DNA from: an uncultured Candidatus Saccharibacteria bacterium
GTDB taxonomy: Bacteria > Patescibacteriota > Dojkabacteria > J137
Length of the DNA stretch: 64,000 bases
Assembly: GCA_964607415.1 (NCBI GenBank)
Contig: CAZSKK010000002.1
Span: forward strand, 224,585-288,584
Direction of reading: 5' to 3'
Within the stretch, counting starts at the first letter, position 1; the number at the start of each line of letters is the position of its first letter. Positions 2,999-56,808 of this stretch are shown piece by piece. A model generated the notes under the pieces. That model searched no databases. It had not been told where the DNA came from and saw only the letters and a program-made list of their open reading frames with translations. Position numbers and translations under genes: made by a program.

Positions 2999-3614
2999 AT
3001 TCATCTGTTTTTTCTAAAATCCTTGTATGTCCCACTACATTGGTTTTCAAGTTTTCTGTAGATTTTCTTCCGTCTATCAATGATGAATTCGGAAGTATAT
3101 GATTATCAAACTTAGGGTAAAAATTTAAAACCTTAGCTTTTGGATTAGGCTCAATAAACTTACTAACATTCTTTTTATTAAGCTGAATCAAGTTAAAAAT
3201 TCTAAGATTAGAAAATATTGTACCCTTATACGGACAGCTTATTGTAATCAAAGTACTAATTCTATCTACTAAACTATCTTTACCCAATAAAGCATTCCCA
3301 ACAATTGAACCTTTGCTATGAGAAAGCACCACTACATTTTTTAAATTATTTCTTAAAATATAGTTTTCAATTTTTTCAATATTTGATTCAATAGTTCCTA
3401 AGCTACTGTATCCAATTTGAGTATGTATTTGAAAACCTAATAGATTTAAATTGTCAGAAAGTGATTTTAGAAAAACCCAGCTTTCAGTAAAACCTGGGAT
3501 TACAATCAAATCTTTATCTCCTTCTTTATAGCTGTTTGGGATTCGCAAGAATAAAGTCAGAAAATAATTTTTAGCAATTAAAATGTACTCTAGAAAAATG
3601 TAATAAATAAACAT
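2976..3614 (-). CDS. Alpha/beta-hydrolase fold protein (lipase/esterase, PGAP1-like)
   Basis: VVLSHSKGS nucleophile-elbow-like motif; size and pattern of small lipases. Confidence 0.45.
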   Translation of the reverse strand: MFIYYIFLEYILIAKNYFLTLFLRIPNSYKEGDKDLIVIPGFTESWVFLKSLSDNLNLLGFQIHTQIGYSSLGTIESNIEKIENYILRNNLKNVVVLSHSKGSIVGNALLGKDSLVDRISTLITISCPYKGTIFSNLRIFNLIQLNKKNVSKFIEPNPKAKVLNFYPKFDNHILPNSSLIDGRKSTENLKTNVVGHTRILEKTDEFNFLKIL

Positions 3615-3636
3615 TTTGCAATTATTATTAATAAAT

Positions 3637-4350
3637 TTATAATTTCTTTACATCGGTTTCTCTACTCTCGTCAAAATTTTCAATTATGCCTTTAAGCCCT
3701 AAAATAAATTTATCGATGTTACCTGGATCAAAAATTGCTTTTGCAGCATCTAAATACTTTTCATGGTCAGGATAAGGATGTTCTTCTTTAGTTATAAAGT
3801 TAAACATTTCTGAATCCAAAACTACATTATTAAAAATTTCGGCCATATCCCAGTAAATTCCTGAATCAGGATCCAGCTCCGAAAAAATCTCGGGGAAAAA
3901 TTTTTGTGTATATTGGTAAAAGAAAAAATGCATTAATTCATGCGCAATTATTCCTTTAGCGGATTCACCTCTAAAATAAATCATAAATGATTCATCCTCT
4001 AAAAATCTTGGAGAAAAAGGATTAAGTGTAATAAAAACATCGTATTCTCCTTTTAAAGCAATTTTATTTTTGAACAAACGATTAGAAACAGTCCAAAATC
4101 TTCCTGAAACCTCATTCCAATTTTGTTCAAATTTGTCTACTGCTTGTCTAATCTTAGATAAGTTCCTACTATAAAATTCAGCTAAAAACTTATCAATATC
4201 TTCTTCTTCAATATTTTCAATTTCTGGATAATGCTCTATAAATATTTGTTTAAAATCAAAACCACCACCAGCTCCAACTTTCAGGAATTTTTTGATCATT
4301 TCTACATCTAATTCTTCGTCAATTTTGAATGTTAGTTTTGGTGTTTTCAT
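3637..4350 (-). CDS. HExxH zinc-metallopeptidase-like hypothetical protein
   Basis: IIAHELMHFFF HExxH motif in a 237 aa soluble protein. Confidence 0.4.
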   Translation of the reverse strand: MKTPKLTFKIDEELDVEMIKKFLKVGAGGGFDFKQIFIEHYPEIENIEEEDIDKFLAEFYSRNLSKIRQAVDKFEQNWNEVSGRFWTVSNRLFKNKIALKGEYDVFITLNPFSPRFLEDESFMIYFRGESAKGIIAHELMHFFFYQYTQKFFPEIFSELDPDSGIYWDMAEIFNNVVLDSEMFNFITKEEHPYPDHEKYLDAAKAIFDPGNIDKFILGLKGIIENFDESRETDVKKL

Positions 4351-4512
4351 TCACCTAGTATACATCATCATGTCCACCAAGTTTAAGCAGGATAATTATT
4401 ATTGATTCACTTTTTTCTATACACCACAAAATTCTAATATCTCCAGCGACTCGTAAACTCAAGATATTGCACTCTCACTTTTTTGTATTAGTCAATGCTA
4501 TAATTCATCCAT

Positions 4513-4586
4513 GCACTTGTAGCTCAACTGGATAGAGCACAACTTTGCGGAAGTTGAGGTTGGAGGTTCGAATCCTCTCAAGTGTA
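4513..4586 (+). tRNA. tRNA-Arg; anticodon reads GCG in loop TTGCGGA
   Basis: 74 nt cloverleaf: acceptor GCACTTG/CAAGTGT, D-arm GCTC-AACTGGATA-GAGC, anticodon stem CAACT/AGTTG, T-arm GGAGG-TTCGAAT-CCTCT; strong similarity to bacterial tRNA-Arg D and T arms; CCA not encoded. Confidence 0.8.
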
Positions 4587-4599
4587 ATTTATAAATCAT

Positions 4600-5934
4600 A
4601 TGAAAAGGCTTTTTCGAAAACTCAACTTCCCCGATATTCTAGTTTTTATTACTAGCACTGCATTTATATTTTCACCTCTGATTGTTGATTTTGATTCACT
4701 ACCAAAAGGTTGGGAACTTCCAAAAGTTTATTTTTGGGTAACTTTCAGTTTGGTAATGATCCTTGTAATCTGGATTTACAAAACGTACATGTTTTTAAAA
4801 AATCCTGATTCAAAGATAAACTACAGCTATTTTTTGCTCTTAACATTACTCTTAATCTTATTCTTGTCCACCAGTCTATCCGAATACGGTCGTATAATTT
4901 TTCCTGATAATAATCCAAATCCTATACATCAACTAATCTTTAACCTCAAATCTGAAACCTCAAGCCTAAGCGTAAACATGTCTTTGTATGGGAACTCATT
5001 TAGGGACCAAGGATTTATTACTTTCCTGTTTTTAATTTTATTTTTCTGGGAAATTGGAAAATTTGTAAACAATCGTAACTGGCATTTTGTTTCCATGGGA
5101 TTTATACTTTCTGCCAGTTTTCAATCAGTTAAAGCTATTCTTGAATTTTATAATTATGCCAAAGTTGATCCCGACCGTTTAAAAGAAGGAATGTGGGTTT
5201 TTGGTTGGTTTGGCCAATCAAATTTTTATGCAGGCTTTTTACTTATTGCAGTTATTTTTAGTACATACTATTTAAGATCTAAAAACTGGACTTTAAGATT
5301 AAGCTTTATTCCTGTTACAGTTTTTCTAAATATAACACTTTGTCTTTCCTACTCTAGTTGGGGGATTATATCGCTTGCATTAACTATAGGATTAATAATT
5401 ATTTATGAACTGCTTCCAAACAAACTTTACCCCTTATTTTTATGTGTACTTGGCATAAGTTTTCTTGTTTTGTATAACTGGTTTATTGAAAAAATAGAAC
5501 AAGAATCGGCATTGAGGGTTATGATTTGGGACAATGCATATGAAATTTATATTAAAACTCCCGTTAAAAATCCTACTCCGGAAAACGCAAGATTGTTTTT
5601 TTTAGGTTCTGGCTTTGATACTCTTGGAGAAGTTTTTAGATCAAAAGGAAGATTTGAAGGATTATATATTGATAGAGGGCACAATTTTTTAATTGATATC
5701 ATAGTTTCTGGTGGAATACTTGGTCTAACTTTTTTTACAGGCATTCTTACAAAAATCGCATTAAAATTTAAAGAAAACTTAAACAATAGAATGTTTAGTT
5801 TTACTTTAATTGCTTTAGTTGCCTGGATGTTTAGAAGTTTTGTGCATGAAAATGGAATAATCAACATCGTGCAATTCTTCATGCTGCTTTCGATTTTAGT
5901 AAATTTTGAGAATGATAATCAGGGCAAAAGTTAA
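4600..5934 (+). CDS. Polytopic membrane protein, possibly O-antigen ligase/Wzy-like
   Basis: 444 aa with 10 or more predicted TM segments. Confidence 0.4.
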   Translation: MKRLFRKLNFPDILVFITSTAFIFSPLIVDFDSLPKGWELPKVYFWVTFSLVMILVIWIYKTYMFLKNPDSKINYSYFLLLTLLLILFLSTSLSEYGRIIFPDNNPNPIHQLIFNLKSETSSLSVNMSLYGNSFRDQGFITFLFLILFFWEIGKFVNNRNWHFVSMGFILSASFQSVKAILEFYNYAKVDPDRLKEGMWVFGWFGQSNFYAGFLLIAVIFSTYYLRSKNWTLRLSFIPVTVFLNITLCLSYSSWGIISLALTIGLIIIYELLPNKLYPLFLCVLGISFLVLYNWFIEKIEQESALRVMIWDNAYEIYIKTPVKNPTPENARLFFLGSGFDTLGEVFRSKGRFEGLYIDRGHNFLIDIIVSGGILGLTFFTGILTKIALKFKENLNNRMFSFTLIALVAWMFRSFVHENGIINIVQFFMLLSILVNFENDNQGKS

Positions 5935-6198: not shown

Positions 6199-7941
6199 TT
6201 ACATACGCTCTACCGTCTCAATTCCAAGAAGATTTAAACCATTTTTTAGAACAATACTGGTAGCTTGAGTTAGGGCAAGGCGCGCTTGTCTATCCTGTTC
6301 TGTTTCTGCTTCTATTACTCTACATTCGCTGTAAAATCTGTTAAAACTTTCTGCAAGTTCGAAAAGATAAGTGCAAATTATGTGTGGTGTAATCTCAGTA
6401 CCAGCTTTAAAAGCAGTTTCTTTATATTCATCCATTTTCTTTAATAAATATAGTTCAGGTTCAGAATTTAAAACTGCATCTAAGTTGCCTGGAACTTTAG
6501 CTTCCTCAATTTCAGCCTTTCTTAAAATTGATTTGCATCTTGCATAAGAGTAAAGAACATACGGTCCCGTGAAACCATCAAAGCTTAAAAATTGCTCCGG
6601 ATCATAACTAAAATCCTTATGAAACTCATGTGATAAAACCAAGAACTTTAGCCCAGCCATTGCAACTGCACTAGATATCAACTCCTTTTCGTCTTCATCA
6701 TATTCCGCAATTTCATCAATTTTTTTTCTTGCTACATTTTTTATTTCATTCAAAATGTCCATGCCTTTAACTGACTCTCCCATTCTTGAACTGAATTTTT
6801 TACCTCCTCTTAACATCCAACCAAATGGTATGTGTTCATACCTGCCAGTAAACTTAGAATCTATAAGTTCCAAAACCTTAATTACGGCTTTAAAATAGTC
6901 TTTTTGTTCTACAGAAGTTGTTACTATTCCTTTAAATAAATCTGGATATTCTTCAAACTTTTTATAAGCAAGGGCTAAATCTTTCGCAGAATAGGTTGGA
7001 TTTCCGTCTTTAGTTAAGAAAACCCAATTATTTAAGCCAATTTTTTCACCTCTATAAATTATTGCACCCTCACTTTCTTCGAATATTTTTCCGCTGTATT
7101 TTTGAACTATTTTTACACCCTCCTCGTAAACCTCACTTTCGGGATATTGTCTATCGTAAGTTATTCCTAAAGTTTTCCAAACTGCATCTTGATGCAGAAT
7201 GCTGTATTCTCTAAGTTTTTTGTATGTTTGCGTTTCTTTGTTATCAACTTTCAAATATATATCCTTATTTATATGTCTTATTTCTTCTTCCGCTTTTTTA
7301 TTTTCTTTAAAAGCATTTGATCCTTTTACATAGCAGTTATCAATAAGTTTCATTCTTTCATGAGCTTCCATTGAATCAAAATTTTCTGGAACTTCAGTAT
7401 GTAAAAAACCCCAAGTGCATTTGGCGACATGCATTCCAACATCTCCAAAGTAATTGGCTTTTATAACATTGTATCCAAGGTTTTCGTGAAGTTTAACCAT
7501 AGAAAGCCCAGACACTGCACTTTTTAAATGACCAATGTGAAATGCTTTGTGAGTATTGGGCTGGCCAAATTCAATCATTATTTGTTTATCTTGTCCCAAG
7601 TTAGATTTACCAAAGTTTTGATCTTGAAGGATTTCTTTAACTATTGATTTAGAATGAATTCTCTTGTCTTTAAAATTCAAAAAACCACTTATAGATGAAG
7701 CCTCTTCAGTAATCGAATTAATATCTAGAAAAGAATTAACTTTTTCGGAAAGTTCTTTTGCAACTTCATTTGGAGATTTTTGCAGAATACTTGCTAATTT
7801 AAAAGTTACAAAAGTCCAGTCACCATGTTCACTGTTTTTGGGTCTTTCTAGAATAACAGGATCTTCGTAGTCAAGAGCATATAAATCTTTTATAGAAGAC
7901 AAAATTAGCCTTCGTTTTTCTTGAACAGATTTATCTTCCAT
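6199..7941 (-). CDS. argS: Arginine--tRNA ligase
   Basis: Class I HIGH motif (AFHIGHLKS), 580 aa, ArgRS N-terminal add-on domain and typical C-terminal ...ETVERM. Confidence 0.95.
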   Translation of the reverse strand: MEDKSVQEKRRLILSSIKDLYALDYEDPVILERPKNSEHGDWTFVTFKLASILQKSPNEVAKELSEKVNSFLDINSITEEASSISGFLNFKDKRIHSKSIVKEILQDQNFGKSNLGQDKQIMIEFGQPNTHKAFHIGHLKSAVSGLSMVKLHENLGYNVIKANYFGDVGMHVAKCTWGFLHTEVPENFDSMEAHERMKLIDNCYVKGSNAFKENKKAEEEIRHINKDIYLKVDNKETQTYKKLREYSILHQDAVWKTLGITYDRQYPESEVYEEGVKIVQKYSGKIFEESEGAIIYRGEKIGLNNWVFLTKDGNPTYSAKDLALAYKKFEEYPDLFKGIVTTSVEQKDYFKAVIKVLELIDSKFTGRYEHIPFGWMLRGGKKFSSRMGESVKGMDILNEIKNVARKKIDEIAEYDEDEKELISSAVAMAGLKFLVLSHEFHKDFSYDPEQFLSFDGFTGPYVLYSYARCKSILRKAEIEEAKVPGNLDAVLNSEPELYLLKKMDEYKETAFKAGTEITPHIICTYLFELAESFNRFYSECRVIEAETEQDRQARLALTQATSIVLKNGLNLLGIETVERM

Positions 7942-24256: not shown

Positions 24257-25672
24257 CTACTCTTCGTCTTCATTGTCCGCACACTCGTTAATTCTTGCAA
24301 TAATATTAACAACTTGTTGATTAAATCCATCTTGTATCATCATTTTACTTCTAACTTTATCAATTGCATGTAAAACAGTTGTATGATCTTTTCTGTTAAG
24401 AAAATTTGCAATTTGTTCAAGTTTATAATTAAATTCTTCTCTTAAAATATACATTGCTACTTGCCTTGCCAATGCTAGCTCTTTTGTCCTTCTTGGACCT
24501 TTAATATCTTTGACTGTTAAATTAAAAGCTTTAGCAACTTCTTTTAAAATTTTTGGTAATTTTACCTTTTCTCTTTTTGCTTTTGTATCTAAGCCTAAAC
24601 AGTGTGCTACCTCTTCCATTGTAAGCTCTCCTTCAGGTTTCATTTGATTAAACAGGCTTACTTTTTGAAGTGCGCCTTCCAATGCCCTTATATTATCTGG
24701 TATCGACCTTGCAACAAATTCAAGAATTTGATTATTTAAACTAAAACCGAATGACTCCGATTTTCTATTTACTATTGCAAGTCTCATTTCATAATCAGGC
24801 GTTCCAACATCAACAACCATGCCGCCCTGCATTCTTGATCTCAAACGACTTTCAAGATTTTGTATTTCTTCCGGTCGCCTATCTGCAATCATAATGATTT
24901 GCTTTCCAGCGTTATACAACTCGTTAAAAGTATTAAAAAATTCCTCCTGAGTTACTATCCACTTTGAAATTAATTGCATATCATCGATAATCAAAACATC
25001 CACAGGTCTATACCTATTTCTAAATTTCTCTTGTTGCCCTGTTTTAATTGCTCTAACCATATCATTCAAAAAACCTTCTGAACTTGTATATACTATTTTT
25101 CTTTTTATATTTCTTTCTAGAATTGATCGTCCGATTGCTTGTGCAAGATGTGTTTTTCCAACTCCAGTTTTCCCGTAAATAAAAAGTGGATTATAAATCT
25201 GACCTGGTCTTTCAATTATTGCTAACGACGCAGCATGAGCAATTCTGTTAGGATTTCCAACTATGTAGTTAGACATCGAATATTTTGGGTTTAATCCTGA
25301 TGCAACGACTTCATCCAGCACACTCCCCATAATCCCATTTTCAGCAGAAAGAATAGAACTAGAATCTACATAAGACCTGCTGTCTTCTTGAACGATAGAA
25401 GATTCTATCTGAGATTGTTGATAAACCTCAAAAACTGGTATAAGGCTATCGCCATATACATAACTGATAGTGTCTTTAATAAGGTTGTCGTATCTAACTT
25501 TTAGCCACTCTGAAGTATAGGGATTAGGTACTCCAATAACAGCCTTTTTCCCATCCACTTTTATTAATTTAGTATCCTGAAAAAAAGTTTTGAAGGTTGC
25601 TGGAGCATCTAGCTTGATCTCTATTTGAGCCAATGTGGTTTTCCAGAGCTGGTCGTGTTCACGTACTTTCAT
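24257..25672 (-). CDS. dnaA: Chromosomal replication initiator DnaA
   Basis: AAA+ GKTGVGKTHL, DDMQ, C-terminal DNA-binding domain KELALARQVAMYILRE..TTVLHAIDKV. Confidence 0.95.
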   Translation of the reverse strand: MKVREHDQLWKTTLAQIEIKLDAPATFKTFFQDTKLIKVDGKKAVIGVPNPYTSEWLKVRYDNLIKDTISYVYGDSLIPVFEVYQQSQIESSIVQEDSRSYVDSSSILSAENGIMGSVLDEVVASGLNPKYSMSNYIVGNPNRIAHAASLAIIERPGQIYNPLFIYGKTGVGKTHLAQAIGRSILERNIKRKIVYTSSEGFLNDMVRAIKTGQQEKFRNRYRPVDVLIIDDMQLISKWIVTQEEFFNTFNELYNAGKQIIMIADRRPEEIQNLESRLRSRMQGGMVVDVGTPDYEMRLAIVNRKSESFGFSLNNQILEFVARSIPDNIRALEGALQKVSLFNQMKPEGELTMEEVAHCLGLDTKAKREKVKLPKILKEVAKAFNLTVKDIKGPRRTKELALARQVAMYILREEFNYKLEQIANFLNRKDHTTVLHAIDKVRSKMMIQDGFNQQVVNIIARINECADNEDEE

Positions 25673-29863: not shown

Positions 29864-31015
29864 ATGAAAGTAACAGTAAACCATGAAAAGATAGCAAAAA
29901 GCCTTTCCTATATAAGCAAATCTGTTAGTCAAAAACCAAATATTCCTGTTCTATCTAATGTACTTTTTGTAAGTGAAAAAACAGGGGTAATGCTTTCTGC
30001 TACGAACTTAGACATGAGTTTACAAATGTGGATACCTGCAAAAGTAGACGAAGAAGGGTCTACAACTATTTCAGCAAAATACTTTGCAGATTTTGTTTCT
30101 GCGACAACCGGCGATAATGTGGATATTGTTTTAAAAGATAATGTTGTAAATGTGCAAACAAAATTCTCAAAGGCAAGTTTTAATACTATTGCTGCACAAG
30201 AGTTTCCAGTGCTTCCAAAAGCAAAAGGCAGTCCATTGTTTTCTATTGATACTGCAGAGTTTATAAAGTCATTAGAGAAAGTAAGCTTTGCCTGCTCAAC
30301 AGATATCTCTGCAGGTAAAATTCAGCAATCTGGGATTTTATTTGAGTTTGATAAGGAAGTGAATGACAAAATTACATTTGTGGGACTTGATAGTTTTAGA
30401 CTTTCAAAGAGGGATTCAAAGATAGCTGATCTTGATAAAGACTTTCCAAAAAGTGAGATTATAGTTCCTTCTAAATATTTAACAGAACTGTCAAGAATTC
30501 TTTTGGATAATCCTAAATTAGATAAAATTGATGTATTTTTGAGCGAATCAAAATCTCAAATAATATTTAAAGTAGAAGATTTGGAGTTTAGTGTAAGGCT
30601 AATTGAAGGGCCATATCCTGACTACAAAAGAATACTTCCAGACTCTTTCTCCTATTCTTTTGAGGTGAAAAAAGCAGAATTTGAAAAATCCATAAAAGTT
30701 GTAAATACTTTTGCAAGGAGTAATTTAGGTAATAAAACACTTTTTGATTTTGATGTTGAAAAATCTAACTTAAACTTAAAATCAGCAGTCGCAGAAGTTG
30801 GAGAAAATGAAACTACGTTAGAAATAGAGAGAGTTGATGGGGCAAGTGACCTTAATTCTGCATACAATTTGAGATATCTTCAAGATCTTGTTTCCCATGT
30901 GGATGGGGATACAATTCGTTTTGAGACAAAAGGACCTCTTGCAGCTTCAGTTTTTAAAGATAAAAGTGACCCAACGTTTATGCATTTGATAATGCCATTA
31001 AGACGTGAAGCATAG
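29864..31015 (+). CDS. dnaN: DNA polymerase III beta sliding clamp
   Basis: 383 aa; start MKVTVN..IAKSLSYISKSVSQKP..PVLSNVLF typical of DnaN. Confidence 0.9.
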   Translation: MKVTVNHEKIAKSLSYISKSVSQKPNIPVLSNVLFVSEKTGVMLSATNLDMSLQMWIPAKVDEEGSTTISAKYFADFVSATTGDNVDIVLKDNVVNVQTKFSKASFNTIAAQEFPVLPKAKGSPLFSIDTAEFIKSLEKVSFACSTDISAGKIQQSGILFEFDKEVNDKITFVGLDSFRLSKRDSKIADLDKDFPKSEIIVPSKYLTELSRILLDNPKLDKIDVFLSESKSQIIFKVEDLEFSVRLIEGPYPDYKRILPDSFSYSFEVKKAEFEKSIKVVNTFARSNLGNKTLFDFDVEKSNLNLKSAVAEVGENETTLEIERVDGASDLNSAYNLRYLQDLVSHVDGDTIRFETKGPLAASVFKDKSDPTFMHLIMPLRREA

Positions 31016-54369: not shown

Positions 54370-54924
54370 ATGTCCAAATCATTTATTAAAATTGTAGATG
54401 CATCTATTCTGCCAGCTAGCCTTATGATTTTAAGTAAGGCTATAGGAATTTTTGTACTTACTAAAATTCTTGATATTCCAATCAGCTTAACGCAATATTC
54501 CGATAACCTTTTTTCGATTGGAGGGCAATCTCTAAGCCTTACAGACGTTAAATTCATAACTTCGTATTCAGATCTGATAATGTATACAGTATTGGCTATT
54601 ATATTCTCTCTTAACATTTTCAGAGCTATTTATCTTCATAATTCACACATTAAGCCAACTTTAGTTACAAAACTTGCGGACAATAATCTTTTAAATTTAA
54701 TTAAAGATTCATACGAGATTTATCATTCTGCAACAGCTTGGCTCGGTTTTACGGTTTTGGCAAATGCTGTTATTTTGGTAAATGTAATAAATGGAGTTAC
54801 TTACTTATGGGTTGGAATTTTGACTGTTATTATCAGTGCTTTGCTTACAGTCCTACTTCTTCAAGATGTTCATAAAGAAATTGAAAATATCAAAAAACAT
54901 CCAGGGCAGTATAATTGGAGCTAA
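54370..54924 (+). CDS. Hypothetical membrane protein
   Basis: 184 aa, 4-5 TM helices. Confidence 0.35.
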   Translation: MSKSFIKIVDASILPASLMILSKAIGIFVLTKILDIPISLTQYSDNLFSIGGQSLSLTDVKFITSYSDLIMYTVLAIIFSLNIFRAIYLHNSHIKPTLVTKLADNNLLNLIKDSYEIYHSATAWLGFTVLANAVILVNVINGVTYLWVGILTVIISALLTVLLLQDVHKEIENIKKHPGQYNWS

Positions 54925-54992
54925 ATAGCTTTCAGCTCTCAGCCTTCGGGTTTTGTGTTTCAGATAGCTAATAGCAGACAGCAGAAAACTCG

Positions 54993-55300
54993 TGGTATAA
55001 TTAACAAAACGTAGAAGGAGCAAAGTACATTTTTAAGGTGACAAAAGAGATTTCGTGTTAGCTGAAAACGAAACGTACTTAAAAATCGAAACTACACTCC
55101 AGAGAAAAGAGCAGAACAGCTAAAGGGCTGTAGAGGTAAAGAGCATGCTCTATCACTCTTAACCTCTATACCTCTAAAGCTCAGTAAACCTCTTCGGGTA
55201 AGCCCGTTATTGCTGTCATCAAGAGTCTAGTATCTTCACTAGAAATTGAGGTGGTACCGCTGAGAAATCAGTCCTCATAAATATAAATTCGAAATCAAAA
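54993..55300 (+). promoter_or_regulatory. T-box-like leader upstream of tyrS, with extended -10 promoter TGgTATAAT at 54993-55001
   Basis: AAATTGAGGTGGTACCGCTGAG (55243-55264) matches T-box consensus AAUUAGGGUGGUACCGCG; UGGU bulge would pair the ACCA end of a tRNA with discriminator A (assumed for tRNA-Tyr); UAC (Tyr) codon followed by A at 55025-55028 in stem-I-like region. Confidence 0.5.
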
Positions 55301-55463
55301 ATCTGAAATTAGAGACACCCTTCGAAAAGCTCAAGGAGGTACATACATACTGTAATTTATGTTTGTTATTTCGTAGTTTCTGATTTAGTATTTATTTAGA
55401 GTTTCGTATTTCTAATTTAGAATTTCATTTTTACTCTTACATTTTTAATTTTAAATTATCACT

Positions 55464-56585
55464 ATGACAACTCAAGAAAAAGTTGAACTAATAAAATCCA
55501 TTGCAAAAAACGGTGGGGAAATAGTTGGCGAAGAAGAACTAGCAAAAATCTTAGATTCAGGCGAAAAACTATACACATACGATGGATTTGAACCGTCTGG
55601 GCAAATGCATATTGCGCAAGGAATTATTAGGGCTATCAACACAAACAAAATGATTGAAGCAGGATTTACTTTTAGAATGTGGGTTGCAGATTGGTTCGGA
55701 TATATTAACAATAAAATGGGTGGTGATTTAGAAAAGATAAAAACTGTTGGAAATTATTTCATTGAAATTTGGAGAGCTTCTGGAATGGATCTTGATAACG
55801 TTGAATTTTTGTGGACTAGCGATTACACGGGAGATACAAATTACTGGTCAACTGTAATGAAAGTTGCAAAAGCGCTAACTTTAAATAGGGCTATAAAAAC
55901 AACTGAAATTATGGGTCGAAGCGAATCTGATAATCTAAGTGCTGCTCAAATAATTTATCCATGTATGCAAATTGCAGATATTTTTTACGTTATGAAGTGT
56001 CAGGTAACTCAACTTGGTTTAGATCAAAGAAAAGCAAACGTGATAGCACGTGAGGTTGGTCCAGAACTTGGTTACTGGAAACCTGTGATTGTAAGTCACG
56101 GAATGTTACAAGGATTGGGTACTCCTCTACCAAAAGATATTGATGCAACAGAACGAGCTATCTCTATGAAAATGAGTAAGTCTAAACCAGATACAGCTAT
56201 ATTTATGACTGATTCAAGGGAAGAAATTCAAAGAAAAATCACAAAAGCGTTTTGCCCTGAGGGTCAAGTAGAAGAAAACCCTGTTTTAGATTACTGTAAG
56301 CAAATTATTTTTGAAGCTAAATGGCTAAAAAGAGAAACTCCTTTACTTACCAATGGAACGTTTGAAGTAAAAAGACCAGAAAAATTTGGGGGTGATATTT
56401 CTTACGGAAGTTATGAAGAACTTGAGAAGGATTATGCCGGAAAAAAATTATTCCCACTTGATTTAAAAAATGCAGTTATTGAATATCTGGATCAATTAGT
56501 GGCTCCAGTTAGATCTCATTTTGAAACTGATCCAAAGGCAAAGGCACTTTTGGAAGAAGTAAAAAGTTATCAGGTAACAAGATAA
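55464..56585 (+). CDS. tyrS: Tyrosine--tRNA ligase, archaeal/eukaryotic type
   Basis: YDGFEPSGQMHIAQG, KMSKSKP, and C-terminal KAFCPEGQVEENP...KRPEKFGGDISYGSYEELE..LFPLDLKNAV collinear with Methanocaldococcus TyrRS. Confidence 0.9.
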   Translation: MTTQEKVELIKSIAKNGGEIVGEEELAKILDSGEKLYTYDGFEPSGQMHIAQGIIRAINTNKMIEAGFTFRMWVADWFGYINNKMGGDLEKIKTVGNYFIEIWRASGMDLDNVEFLWTSDYTGDTNYWSTVMKVAKALTLNRAIKTTEIMGRSESDNLSAAQIIYPCMQIADIFYVMKCQVTQLGLDQRKANVIAREVGPELGYWKPVIVSHGMLQGLGTPLPKDIDATERAISMKMSKSKPDTAIFMTDSREEIQRKITKAFCPEGQVEENPVLDYCKQIIFEAKWLKRETPLLTNGTFEVKRPEKFGGDISYGSYEELEKDYAGKKLFPLDLKNAVIEYLDQLVAPVRSHFETDPKAKALLEEVKSYQVTR

Positions 56586-56605
56586 TTCTAAAAATCAAAA
56601 GTGTA

Positions 56606-56641
56606 GAAAGCGCGGCGTAAAACGTCGCGCTTTCTTTTTTG
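56606..56641 (+). terminator. Rho-independent terminator of tyrS (GAAAGCGCGGCG-TAAAA-CGTCGCGCTTTC + T-run); also family C palindrome copy 1
   Basis: GC-rich perfect stem followed by TTTTTTG. Confidence 0.8.
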
Positions 56642-56808
56642 TCTATTTGGGTATTTATACTTAAAAGAGTTAAAATGATTTGTTCGCAGTTTTTAGTTTT
56701 TAGATTAATATTACGTTTACACTACTAGAATCTCTTACTTATAAATATTTTGTAAAACAGGTCTTATTCAAATTTGACCCAGAAGCTGTTCACAATCTTT
56801 TCACAAAT

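Follow-up and report, generated by a model that had tools for sequence, protein, structure and literature searches.

The stretch analysed here, 64,000 nucleotides from an uncultured Candidatus Saccharibacteria bacterium placed by GTDB in the Dojkabacteria (contig CAZSKK010000002.1; hereafter the window), carries in front of tyrS, the gene for tyrosyl-tRNA synthetase (TyrRS), an untranslated leader which, judged from its sequence, is a true tyrosine-specific T-box sensor. T-boxes, the standard example of one RNA reading another, have been described chiefly in Firmicutes and Actinobacteria, and two outputs are known for them, a transcription terminator and the masking of a Shine-Dalgarno (SD) sequence. 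The leader in the window belongs to this family by every feature of its sensor and fails on the expression platform. As a whole, we favour the explanation that it is a true Tyr T-box with an unusual, non-canonical cis output on tyrS, to which we assign a probability of roughly 0.6. These observations place Tyr-specific T-boxes in bacteria of the Candidate Phyla Radiation (CPR), over a horizontally acquired archaeal-type TyrRS with a C1–G72 tRNA partner.

Anatomy of the T-box sensor and its tRNA partner

The Rfam covariance model of the T-box leader (RF00230) matches positions 55003–55279 of the + strand over its full length (model positions 1–219 of 219, not truncated), scoring 99.5 bits (gathering score 93) at an E-value of 1e-20. 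The whole-window Rfam scan at the gathering threshold gave two matches only, this leader and a tRNA-Arg, and a rescan in the looser E-value mode returned nothing further. An initial annotation of this DNA had proposed a T-box-type leader at this place and named a sub-threshold covariance score as grounds for giving the proposal up. The score lies above the threshold, all recognisable parts of the sensor are present, and each of the elements that the annotation had listed (extended −10, T-box sequence, UAC-A, AAGGAGG and the tyrS open reading frame (ORF)) is found where it was placed. Folding of stem I and of the antiterminator, suggested at the same time as a check, yielded a specifier loop and a bulged antiterminator helix (Rfam alignment and local fold). 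The features of the locus, in the coordinates of the window, are listed below; handles of the type L161 denote related loci.

54993–55001, +, extended −10 promoter TGGTATAAT, read in the sequence
55003–55279, +, T-box leader RF00230, full length by the Rfam covariance model
55010–55105, +, stem I (Rfam alignment and motif coordinates)
55011–55020, +, base of stem I, GA/K-turn-type, GUAGAAGGAG
55024–55027, +, specifier-loop AGUA
55046–55050, +, AG bulge AGAGA (high posterior probability in the Rfam alignment)
55057–55069, +, distal stem I loop GUUAGCUGAAAAC (high posterior probability in the Rfam alignment)
55093–55096, +, specifier UAC (Tyr codon) and conserved purine A, inside the stem I specifier loop
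55109–55192, +, enlarged stem II hairpin, a 71-nt insertion relative to the Rfam consensus; local fold −25.7 kcal/mol
55195–55206, +, stem IIA/B element CGGGUAAGCCCG (Rfam alignment); motif also in L088 and L003
55227–55242, +, stem III CUAGU-AUCUUC-ACUAG (Rfam alignment and motif coordinates)
55243–55264, +, T-box consensus sequence AAATTGAGGTGGTACCGCTGAG, as given in the initial annotation
55248–55276, +, bulged antiterminator-type discriminator (Rfam alignment and local fold)
within 55248–55276, +, helix A1, GAGG/CCUC, and helix A2, GCUGA/UCAGU with a GAAA loop
55248–55263 and 55268–55276, +, antiterminator strands GAGGUGGUACCGCUGA and UCAGUCCUC, forming the bulged helix in the local fold
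55252–55258, +, 7-nt T-box bulge UGGUACC, with U55255 opposite the tRNA discriminator
55277–55413, +, AU-rich variable spacer with no recognisable expression platform (minimum free energy (MFE) folding and pair probabilities)
55333–55339, +, AAGGAGG, inside the spacer, 125 nt 5' of the ATG at 55464
55414–55463, +, 50 nt directly 5' of the tyrS ATG, conserved with L169/L171
55464–56585, +, tyrS, 373 aa, archaeal/eukaryal-type TyrRS with HIGH-type motif HIAQ and with KMSKS
56605–56641, +, intrinsic terminator after tyrS, with a 14-bp GC-rich stem (56605–56635) and a U-tract

Within stem I, GAAAcUACACUCC of the window falls on the Rfam consensus GAAa.uucaCC, which puts UAC at the specifier position, and the UAC-A that the initial annotation had offered as a specifier candidate in a stem-I-like region is in this way confirmed by alignment. 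UAC holds the same position in L161, L088 and L163, and the amino acid that it specifies, Tyr, agrees with the gene downstream, tyrS. The AG bulge and the distal loop, by their alignment to the model, form a predicted platform for the tRNA elbow. Further, the stretch GAGGUGGUACCGCUG...CAGUCCUCA is identical across the window, L161, L169, L171 and L163.

The extended −10 has no good −35 partner, and a transcript driven by it would start about 7 nt further 3'. TGnTATAAT recurs in L161, L169 and L171 at the same distance from the T-box as in the window, and the T-boxes of L088, L003, L009 and L102 likewise have TATAAT-type elements in front of them. From the stop codon of the upstream ORF (54924) to the tyrS ATG there are 539 untranslated nucleotides, or about 462 when counted from the −10.

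The block comprising stem II and stem IIA/B, about 100 nt long, is missing from the otherwise 91%-identical T-box allele of L161, L169 and L171. Because the whole block is absent there, this comparison indicates that stem II is dispensable, or a recent gain or loss, in the lineage of the window. An origin of the stem II insert or of the spacer as a repeated or mobile element was rejected, as no second copy of either was found within the window.

No tRNA-Tyr gene was detected within the 64-kb window by ARAGORN or Rfam; the genome's own tRNA-Tyr lies outside it, and the features of the tRNA are taken from relatives. A tRNA-Tyr gene stands 5' of the archaeal-type tyrS in 3 of 41 related loci scanned, namely L002, which is titled Saccharibacteria and, with a TyrRS at 71% identity, was placed with the Dojkabacteria, L009 and L059. 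All three tRNAs have the anticodon GUA, a C1–G72 pair and A73, with a long variable arm in L002 and a short one in L009 and L059. Judged by these genes, U55255 is complementary to A73 and UAC to GUA; the discriminator A, which had at first been assumed for the UGGU–ACCA pairing, is present in each of them. From this we infer that the T-box of the window would bind uncharged tRNA-Tyr (GUA, A73). C1–G72 has been reported for the tRNA-Tyr of WS6 (PMC5370408). Since the contacts of a T-box are the anticodon, the elbow and the NCCA end, and not the 1:72 pair (PMC7583486), the sensor would tolerate the archaeal C1–G72 identity switch, and such tolerance would explain why an old regulator was kept alongside a new enzyme.

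The archaeal-type TyrRS and related CPR loci

The TyrRS of the window matches PF00579 at 148 bits and NF006330, the archaeal-type equivalog of NCBIfam, at 346.5 bits (cut-off 220); the bacterial tyrS model TIGR00234 gives 90.9 bits, under its cut-off of 113.8. The motifs HIAQ and KMSKS are invariant in the homolog alignment. The best PDB matches are all named tyrosyl-tRNA synthetases by their depositors. They include 3vgj, 7ror, 2cya and 1j1u, and by their codes the top entries are presumably Plasmodium, Leishmania, Aeropyrum and Pyrococcus enzymes. Among the 60 PDB matches listed, by name and not by organism, there is no entry that we would take to be a bacterial TyrRS. The M. jannaschii enzyme 1j1u aligns collinearly (window residues 11–351 against 5–304, E 1.8e-50), and together with the NF006330 score this alignment upholds the earlier description of the enzyme as archaeal/eukaryotic in type and collinear with that of Methanocaldococcus.

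The nearest named database proteins are labelled Candidatus Dojkabacteria or candidate division WS6. Beyond Dojkabacteria the nearest loci, at 52–61% identity, bear Roizmanbacteria and DPANN archaeal titles, besides several other titles that appear to belong to mislabelled bins. The combination of an archaeal-type TyrRS with a C1–G72 tRNA-Tyr has been described in Dojkabacteria/WS6 and other CPR phyla (Mukai et al. 2017, PMC5370408), from which we judge that the TyrRS of the window is probably the sole TyrRS of its cell. In L169 (tyrS 3463–4833) an insertion of about 83 aa, with no counterpart in the window enzyme, directly precedes KMSKS. An additional tRNA-binding domain of the EMAP/Myf-like type (PF01588), situated at the N-terminus in L163, is found in many TyrRS of Dojkabacteria and is likewise absent from the window enzyme.

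At least seven other CPR contigs (L161, L163, L088, L003, L009, L059 and L102) likewise have a T-box ahead of an operon with archaeal-type tyrS, and the UAC specifier was read in six of these seven, L003 being the remaining one. In L161, the TyrRS of which is 91% identical to that of the window, the T-box (88.5 bits) is followed by a prephenate dehydrogenase gene (tyrA) and then tyrS; in L169/L171 the same T-box allele is followed by a spacer and tyrS. The T-boxes of L163, L088 and L003 score 43.8, 76.5 and 40 bits, respectively. L009 has the order T-box (67 bits), terminator, tRNA-Tyr, aminotransferase, tyrS, a layout shared by L059, and in L102 an aromatic amino-acid hydroxylase gene stands between the T-box and tyrS.

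CPR bacteria have been described as having little biosynthetic capacity, which makes tyrosine-supply genes in them notable. Two lie between T-box and tyrS, the prephenate dehydrogenase of L161 (340–1083, PF02153) and the hydroxylase of L102 (348–1100, PF00351), which is biopterin-dependent. On this comparison of loci, the Tyr T-box with archaeal-type tyrS is a recurrent CPR tyrosine regulon and not a one-off graft. The initial annotation had spoken of an unusual regulatory graft: the union of a T-box with an archaeal-type synthetase is real, but it is less unusual than was thought, because the lineages in which it recurs are several and because Bacillus cereus lysK (PMC2916919) provides a precedent. 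The distribution is patchy, as many close Dojkabacteria loci, with 68–78% TyrRS identity, gave no T-box in Rfam E-value mode or by motif search; the intergenic regions there are short.

Several of these loci show features of interest in themselves. In L009 (120–417) and L059 (1590–1839) the Tyr T-box and a classical terminator precede the gene of the T-box's own ligand, tRNA-Tyr, the distance from the U-tract to the start of the tRNA gene being 6 nt in L009 and about 25 nt in L059. This arrangement suggests that the T-box would gate transcription of its own ligand tRNA, and no description of a T-box driving its own ligand tRNA was found in the literature searched. L009 (120–160) and L102 (110–150) have an ultrashort stem I, GGAG-AAAUACC-CUCC, with UAC in the terminal loop, together with a strong intrinsic terminator; short forms of stem I are tied mainly to translational T-boxes in reviews (PMC7583486). 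In the putative T-box leader of L059 a GC-rich hairpin followed by U6 (UCCGACAUUAUGUCGGAUUUUUU, 1625–1665) stands between a stem I-like hairpin and the T-box sequence; it might act as a further attenuator or terminate an upstream unit. Riboswitches of other kinds are also present close to tyrS in related CPR loci, namely an adenosylcobalamin (AdoCbl)-II riboswitch in L002 (6456–6527, 43.9 bits), a weak AdoCbl match in L082 (4296–4441) and a thiamine pyrophosphate (TPP) riboswitch in L020 (5359–5470, 63 bits). In the window itself argS is present and has no T-box (genes are listed at 6199–7941 (−), 24257–25672 (−) and 29864–31015 (+)), and the distance of only about 4 kb between dnaA and dnaN makes it probable that the window contains the replication origin region.

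The expression platform and the read-out

A consensus scan of 54800–56800 found no intrinsic terminator in the leader on the + strand. The sole + strand calls in this interval, two that overlap, fall on the terminator 3' of tyrS, which shows that classical terminators are in use and makes their absence from the leader meaningful. Relaxed terminator scans returned only large, weak and non-conserved domains. When folded without constraint, the MFE structures of the window, L161, L163 and L169 retain the antiterminator, while the same test flips to terminators in the positive controls L009, L059 and L088. In these three loci (by unconstrained folding) and in L102 (read directly from the sequence), a GC-rich hairpin with a U-tract uses the antiterminator 3' strand as its 5' arm. 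With the 5' strand blocked, pair probabilities gave no consistent alternative partner for the antiterminator 3' strand in the window, L161, L163 and L169. A different arrangement was met in L003 (2940–3010), where the antiterminator 3' strand CAUCGCC pairs with GGCGAUG, which includes the tyrS start codon, at −13.3 kcal/mol (shuffles −6.9 ± 2.1, p about 0.01), so that the start codon itself, and not an SD, is masked. Masking of the start codon in the window was rejected, because the 3' strand is no more complementary to the start region there than expected by chance (−5.6 against −4.9 ± 1.7), and the same holds for L169 and L161.

Thus, the window has neither a terminator that shares the antiterminator 3' strand, which marks the transcriptional class of T-boxes, nor a sequestrator over an SD or start codon, which marks the translational class. 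The initial annotation, which had seen no canonical terminator after the T-box and called the read-out unclear, was right on both counts: the scan of the leader is empty, and nothing found at the start site competes with the antiterminator. On our working model, neither attenuation by a classical hairpin switch nor SD masking would be the mechanism.

SD usage was assessed across the window. Among its 55 ORFs that encode 120 aa or more, not one carries GGAG or GAGG in the roughly 20 nt ahead of the first ATG, the genome appears SD-less, and for this reason SD masking is not an option. The sequence AAGGAGG, described earlier as SD-like, does lie 125 nt before the ATG, but in a genome without SD usage (0/55) it is not an SD, and its role as a ribosome-binding site was rejected. 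In five window genes a −10 hexamer (at least 5/6 match) ends 6 nt before the ATG, which suggests that some mRNAs of this genome may be leaderless.

The region between the T-box and tyrS consists of two parts. Its last 50 nt align with those of L169 at a score of 48, against 4.2 ± 6.4 for shuffles, none of 500 of which reached 48, and may be a proximal promoter or a translation-initiation region; the remaining spacer of the window has no significant similarity to that of L169. Several origins of the spacer were considered and rejected. An eroded tyrA was tested because L161 has the order T-box–tyrA–tyrS, and alignments of the 185-nt spacer to the L161 gene, local and semi-global, did not differ from shuffles (23 against 22.8; 50.2 against 50.2 ± 6.8). 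A relic of neighbouring genes was sought by tblastn with the 47-, 155-, 109- and 184-aa proteins encoded next to tyrS in related loci, and nothing came below an E-value of about 0.1. Finally, a degraded tRNA-Tyr, as might be thought of from L009 and L059, was not supported, since alignments to the three tRNA-Tyr were at shuffle level and ARAGORN and Rfam returned nothing.

In our working model, transcription from the extended −10 promoter would produce a leader RNA of about 460 nt, in which the specifier UAC-A of stem I would read the GUA anticodon of tRNA-Tyr, the tRNA elbow would dock on the distal platform of stem I, and UGGU of the bulge would pair with the free ACCA 3' end of uncharged tRNA-Tyr (A73). 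Archaeal-type tyrS would be the gene under control, and since in relatives the same leader also covers tyrosine-supply genes, the unit may be viewed as a tyrosine-charging feedback sensor. Uncharged tRNA-Tyr would still raise tyrS expression in cis, through a non-canonical output. One candidate for this output is that the leader mRNA, which is long and AU-rich, is protected or stabilised; another is suppression of factor-dependent or weak termination in the spacer. That a clade of Dojkabacteria converts tRNA-Tyr charging into tyrS expression by a mechanism undescribed for T-boxes is a more far-reaching proposal, which we regard as tentative and on balance doubtful; here the tRNA would shield the leader mRNA from nucleases, or from termination that depends on Rho or other factors.

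The case for a functional sensor comes from its conservation. Between the window and L161, promoter and stem I are identical at 105 of 115 positions (91%), while tyrS, with 91% protein identity, retains 70% identity at four-fold sites, and the intergenic flanks are 55–60% identical with indels. Stem III has two compensatory pair changes relative to L161, and in L163 it is wholly different in sequence yet paired; more generally, the stems of L163 are preserved with differing sequence, and UAC and the A1/A2 strands are retained. Together, the 91% against 70%, the compensatory changes and the structure kept in L163 argue that the sensor is under purifying selection and is not a decaying relic.

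A number of points weigh against this interpretation. The selection argument draws on a small sample, the three independent sensor sequences of the subclade, and recombination could confound it. The sequence right after CAGUCCUCA is entirely different in the window, L169, L161 and L163. Comparison of L161 (1–2376) with L169 (2980–4833) shows an identical tail of the upstream membrane-protein gene, a T-box identical at 240 of 241 positions and a tyrS at only 90.6%, with tyrA between T-box and tyrS in L161 and not in L169; the drop from 240/241 to 90.6% places a recombination breakpoint exactly at the 3' edge of the antiterminator. With this breakpoint and with junctions that differ by lineage, the platform could have been lost recently. 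Moreover, an RNA with no helix in competition may just be permanently 'on' and not act as a switch, and a second promoter, by which the T-box is bypassed, may lie in the conserved 50 nt before the ATG.

These points are the substance of the first alternative, in which the T-box is a non-regulatory remnant that lost its terminator by rearrangement, tyrS being expressed by constitutive read-through or from a proximal promoter. It would account for a competing helix being found nowhere in the leader, for the four different junctions after CAGUCCUCA, for the breakpoint at that point, for the conserved 50 nt before the ATG and for the other Dojkabacteria at 68–78% TyrRS identity that have no T-box at all. 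It does not sit well with a sensor conserved far above neutral sites and with compensatory changes, nor with the retention of UAC and of the A1/A2 strands in three diverged lineages that all lack the terminator, and we consider it unlikely.

Less probable still is classical transcription attenuation, in which the AU-rich spacer would hold a terminator that is cryptic, weak or long-range. A candidate helix can be drawn between CUC-A-UAAAUA (55274–55283) and UAUUUA-GAG (55393–55401), followed by UUUCGUAUUUCUAAUUU; the resulting domain would overlap 3 nt of the A1 3' strand and have a U-rich tail after it, and the homologous T-boxes of more distant CPR relatives do use terminators. However, the domain closed by this helix measures about 100 nt, the helix appears in neither the MFE structure nor the ensemble, the consensus scan is negative, nothing comparable is conserved in L169, L161 or L163, and the real terminators of this genome are compact and GC-rich.

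Translational control, with AAGGAGG as a masked SD or with the tyrS start masked by the antiterminator 3' strand, has the masking duplex of L003 as its precedent, and in the window UCAUA (55275–55279) pairs with UAUGA of the start codon at a probability of about 0.3 when the 5' strand is blocked. Given an SD motif in none of the 55 genes, a distance of 125 nt from AAGGAGG to the ATG, 3' strand pairing at chance in the window, L169 and L161, and 185 nt from the end of the T-box to the ATG, we hold it to be very improbable. Lastly, the idea that the region is some other small RNA, or resembles the T-box consensus by chance, is refuted by the full-length Rfam match at E 1e-20, the specifier cognate to the downstream gene and the homologous leaders before tyrS operons in seven other contigs, and is left with practically no likelihood.

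The preferred reading, a true Tyr T-box with a non-canonical output, and the remnant reading differ in what they would mean. If the sensor is functional, a third mode of T-box read-out is indicated; if it is not, the locus would be a snapshot of the loss of a riboswitch platform via recombination at the aptamer boundary.

Comparison with known T-box systems

The closest functional parallel is the tyrS leader of Bacillus subtilis (Grundy and Henkin), which reportedly has a UAC specifier and a variable base of the bulge that pairs with A73, and autoregulates tyrS. It has in common with the window UAC, the A73 pairing, a long stem I with distal platform, stem II/IIA-B, stem III and the antiterminator. 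In B. subtilis, however, a strong intrinsic terminator precedes a bacterial-type TyrRS in an SD-using Firmicute, whereas the window combines no competing terminator, an archaeal-type enzyme, a predicted C1–G72 tRNA and an SD-less CPR host.

The T-box of Bacillus cereus lysK is said to have a classical terminator. It controls a horizontally acquired archaeal-type class I lysyl-tRNA synthetase (LysRS; PMC2916919), and it shares with the window a T-box over an archaeal-type synthetase. The lysK product is a second, accessory LysRS in a Firmicute, whereas the TyrRS of the window is probably the sole one.

The absence of a transcription terminator is shared with the translational class II T-boxes of Actinobacteria, such as that of M. 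tuberculosis ileS, which are terminator-less, have an SD-masking sequestrator and usually a short stem I, and in which uncharged tRNA stabilises the discriminator (PMC7583486, PMC11297988). In contrast, stem I of the window leader is long and canonical, there is neither an SD to mask nor a sequestrator, and the start codon is 185 nt away.

With regard to the enzyme, the study of Mukai et al. (2017, PMC5370408) deals with the same family and the same hosts (Dojkabacteria/WS6, Microgenomates and Parcubacteria), and the tRNA-Tyr features it describes are those of L002, L009 and L059. The words 'T-box' and 'riboswitch' do not occur in it. The archaeal-type TyrRS of Dojkabacteria is therefore already published (PMC5370408), and what is new here is the T-box regulatory layer; within the literature searched, none was found that links T-boxes to CPR/Patescibacteria or to individual CPR phyla.

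Finally, the glyQS-type T-boxes (PMC7583486) and the allele of L161, L169 and L171 are both without stem II, and the allele has kept stem I, stem III and the discriminator. The window differs from glyQS in that stem II/IIA-B is kept and even enlarged, while glyQS has terminators.

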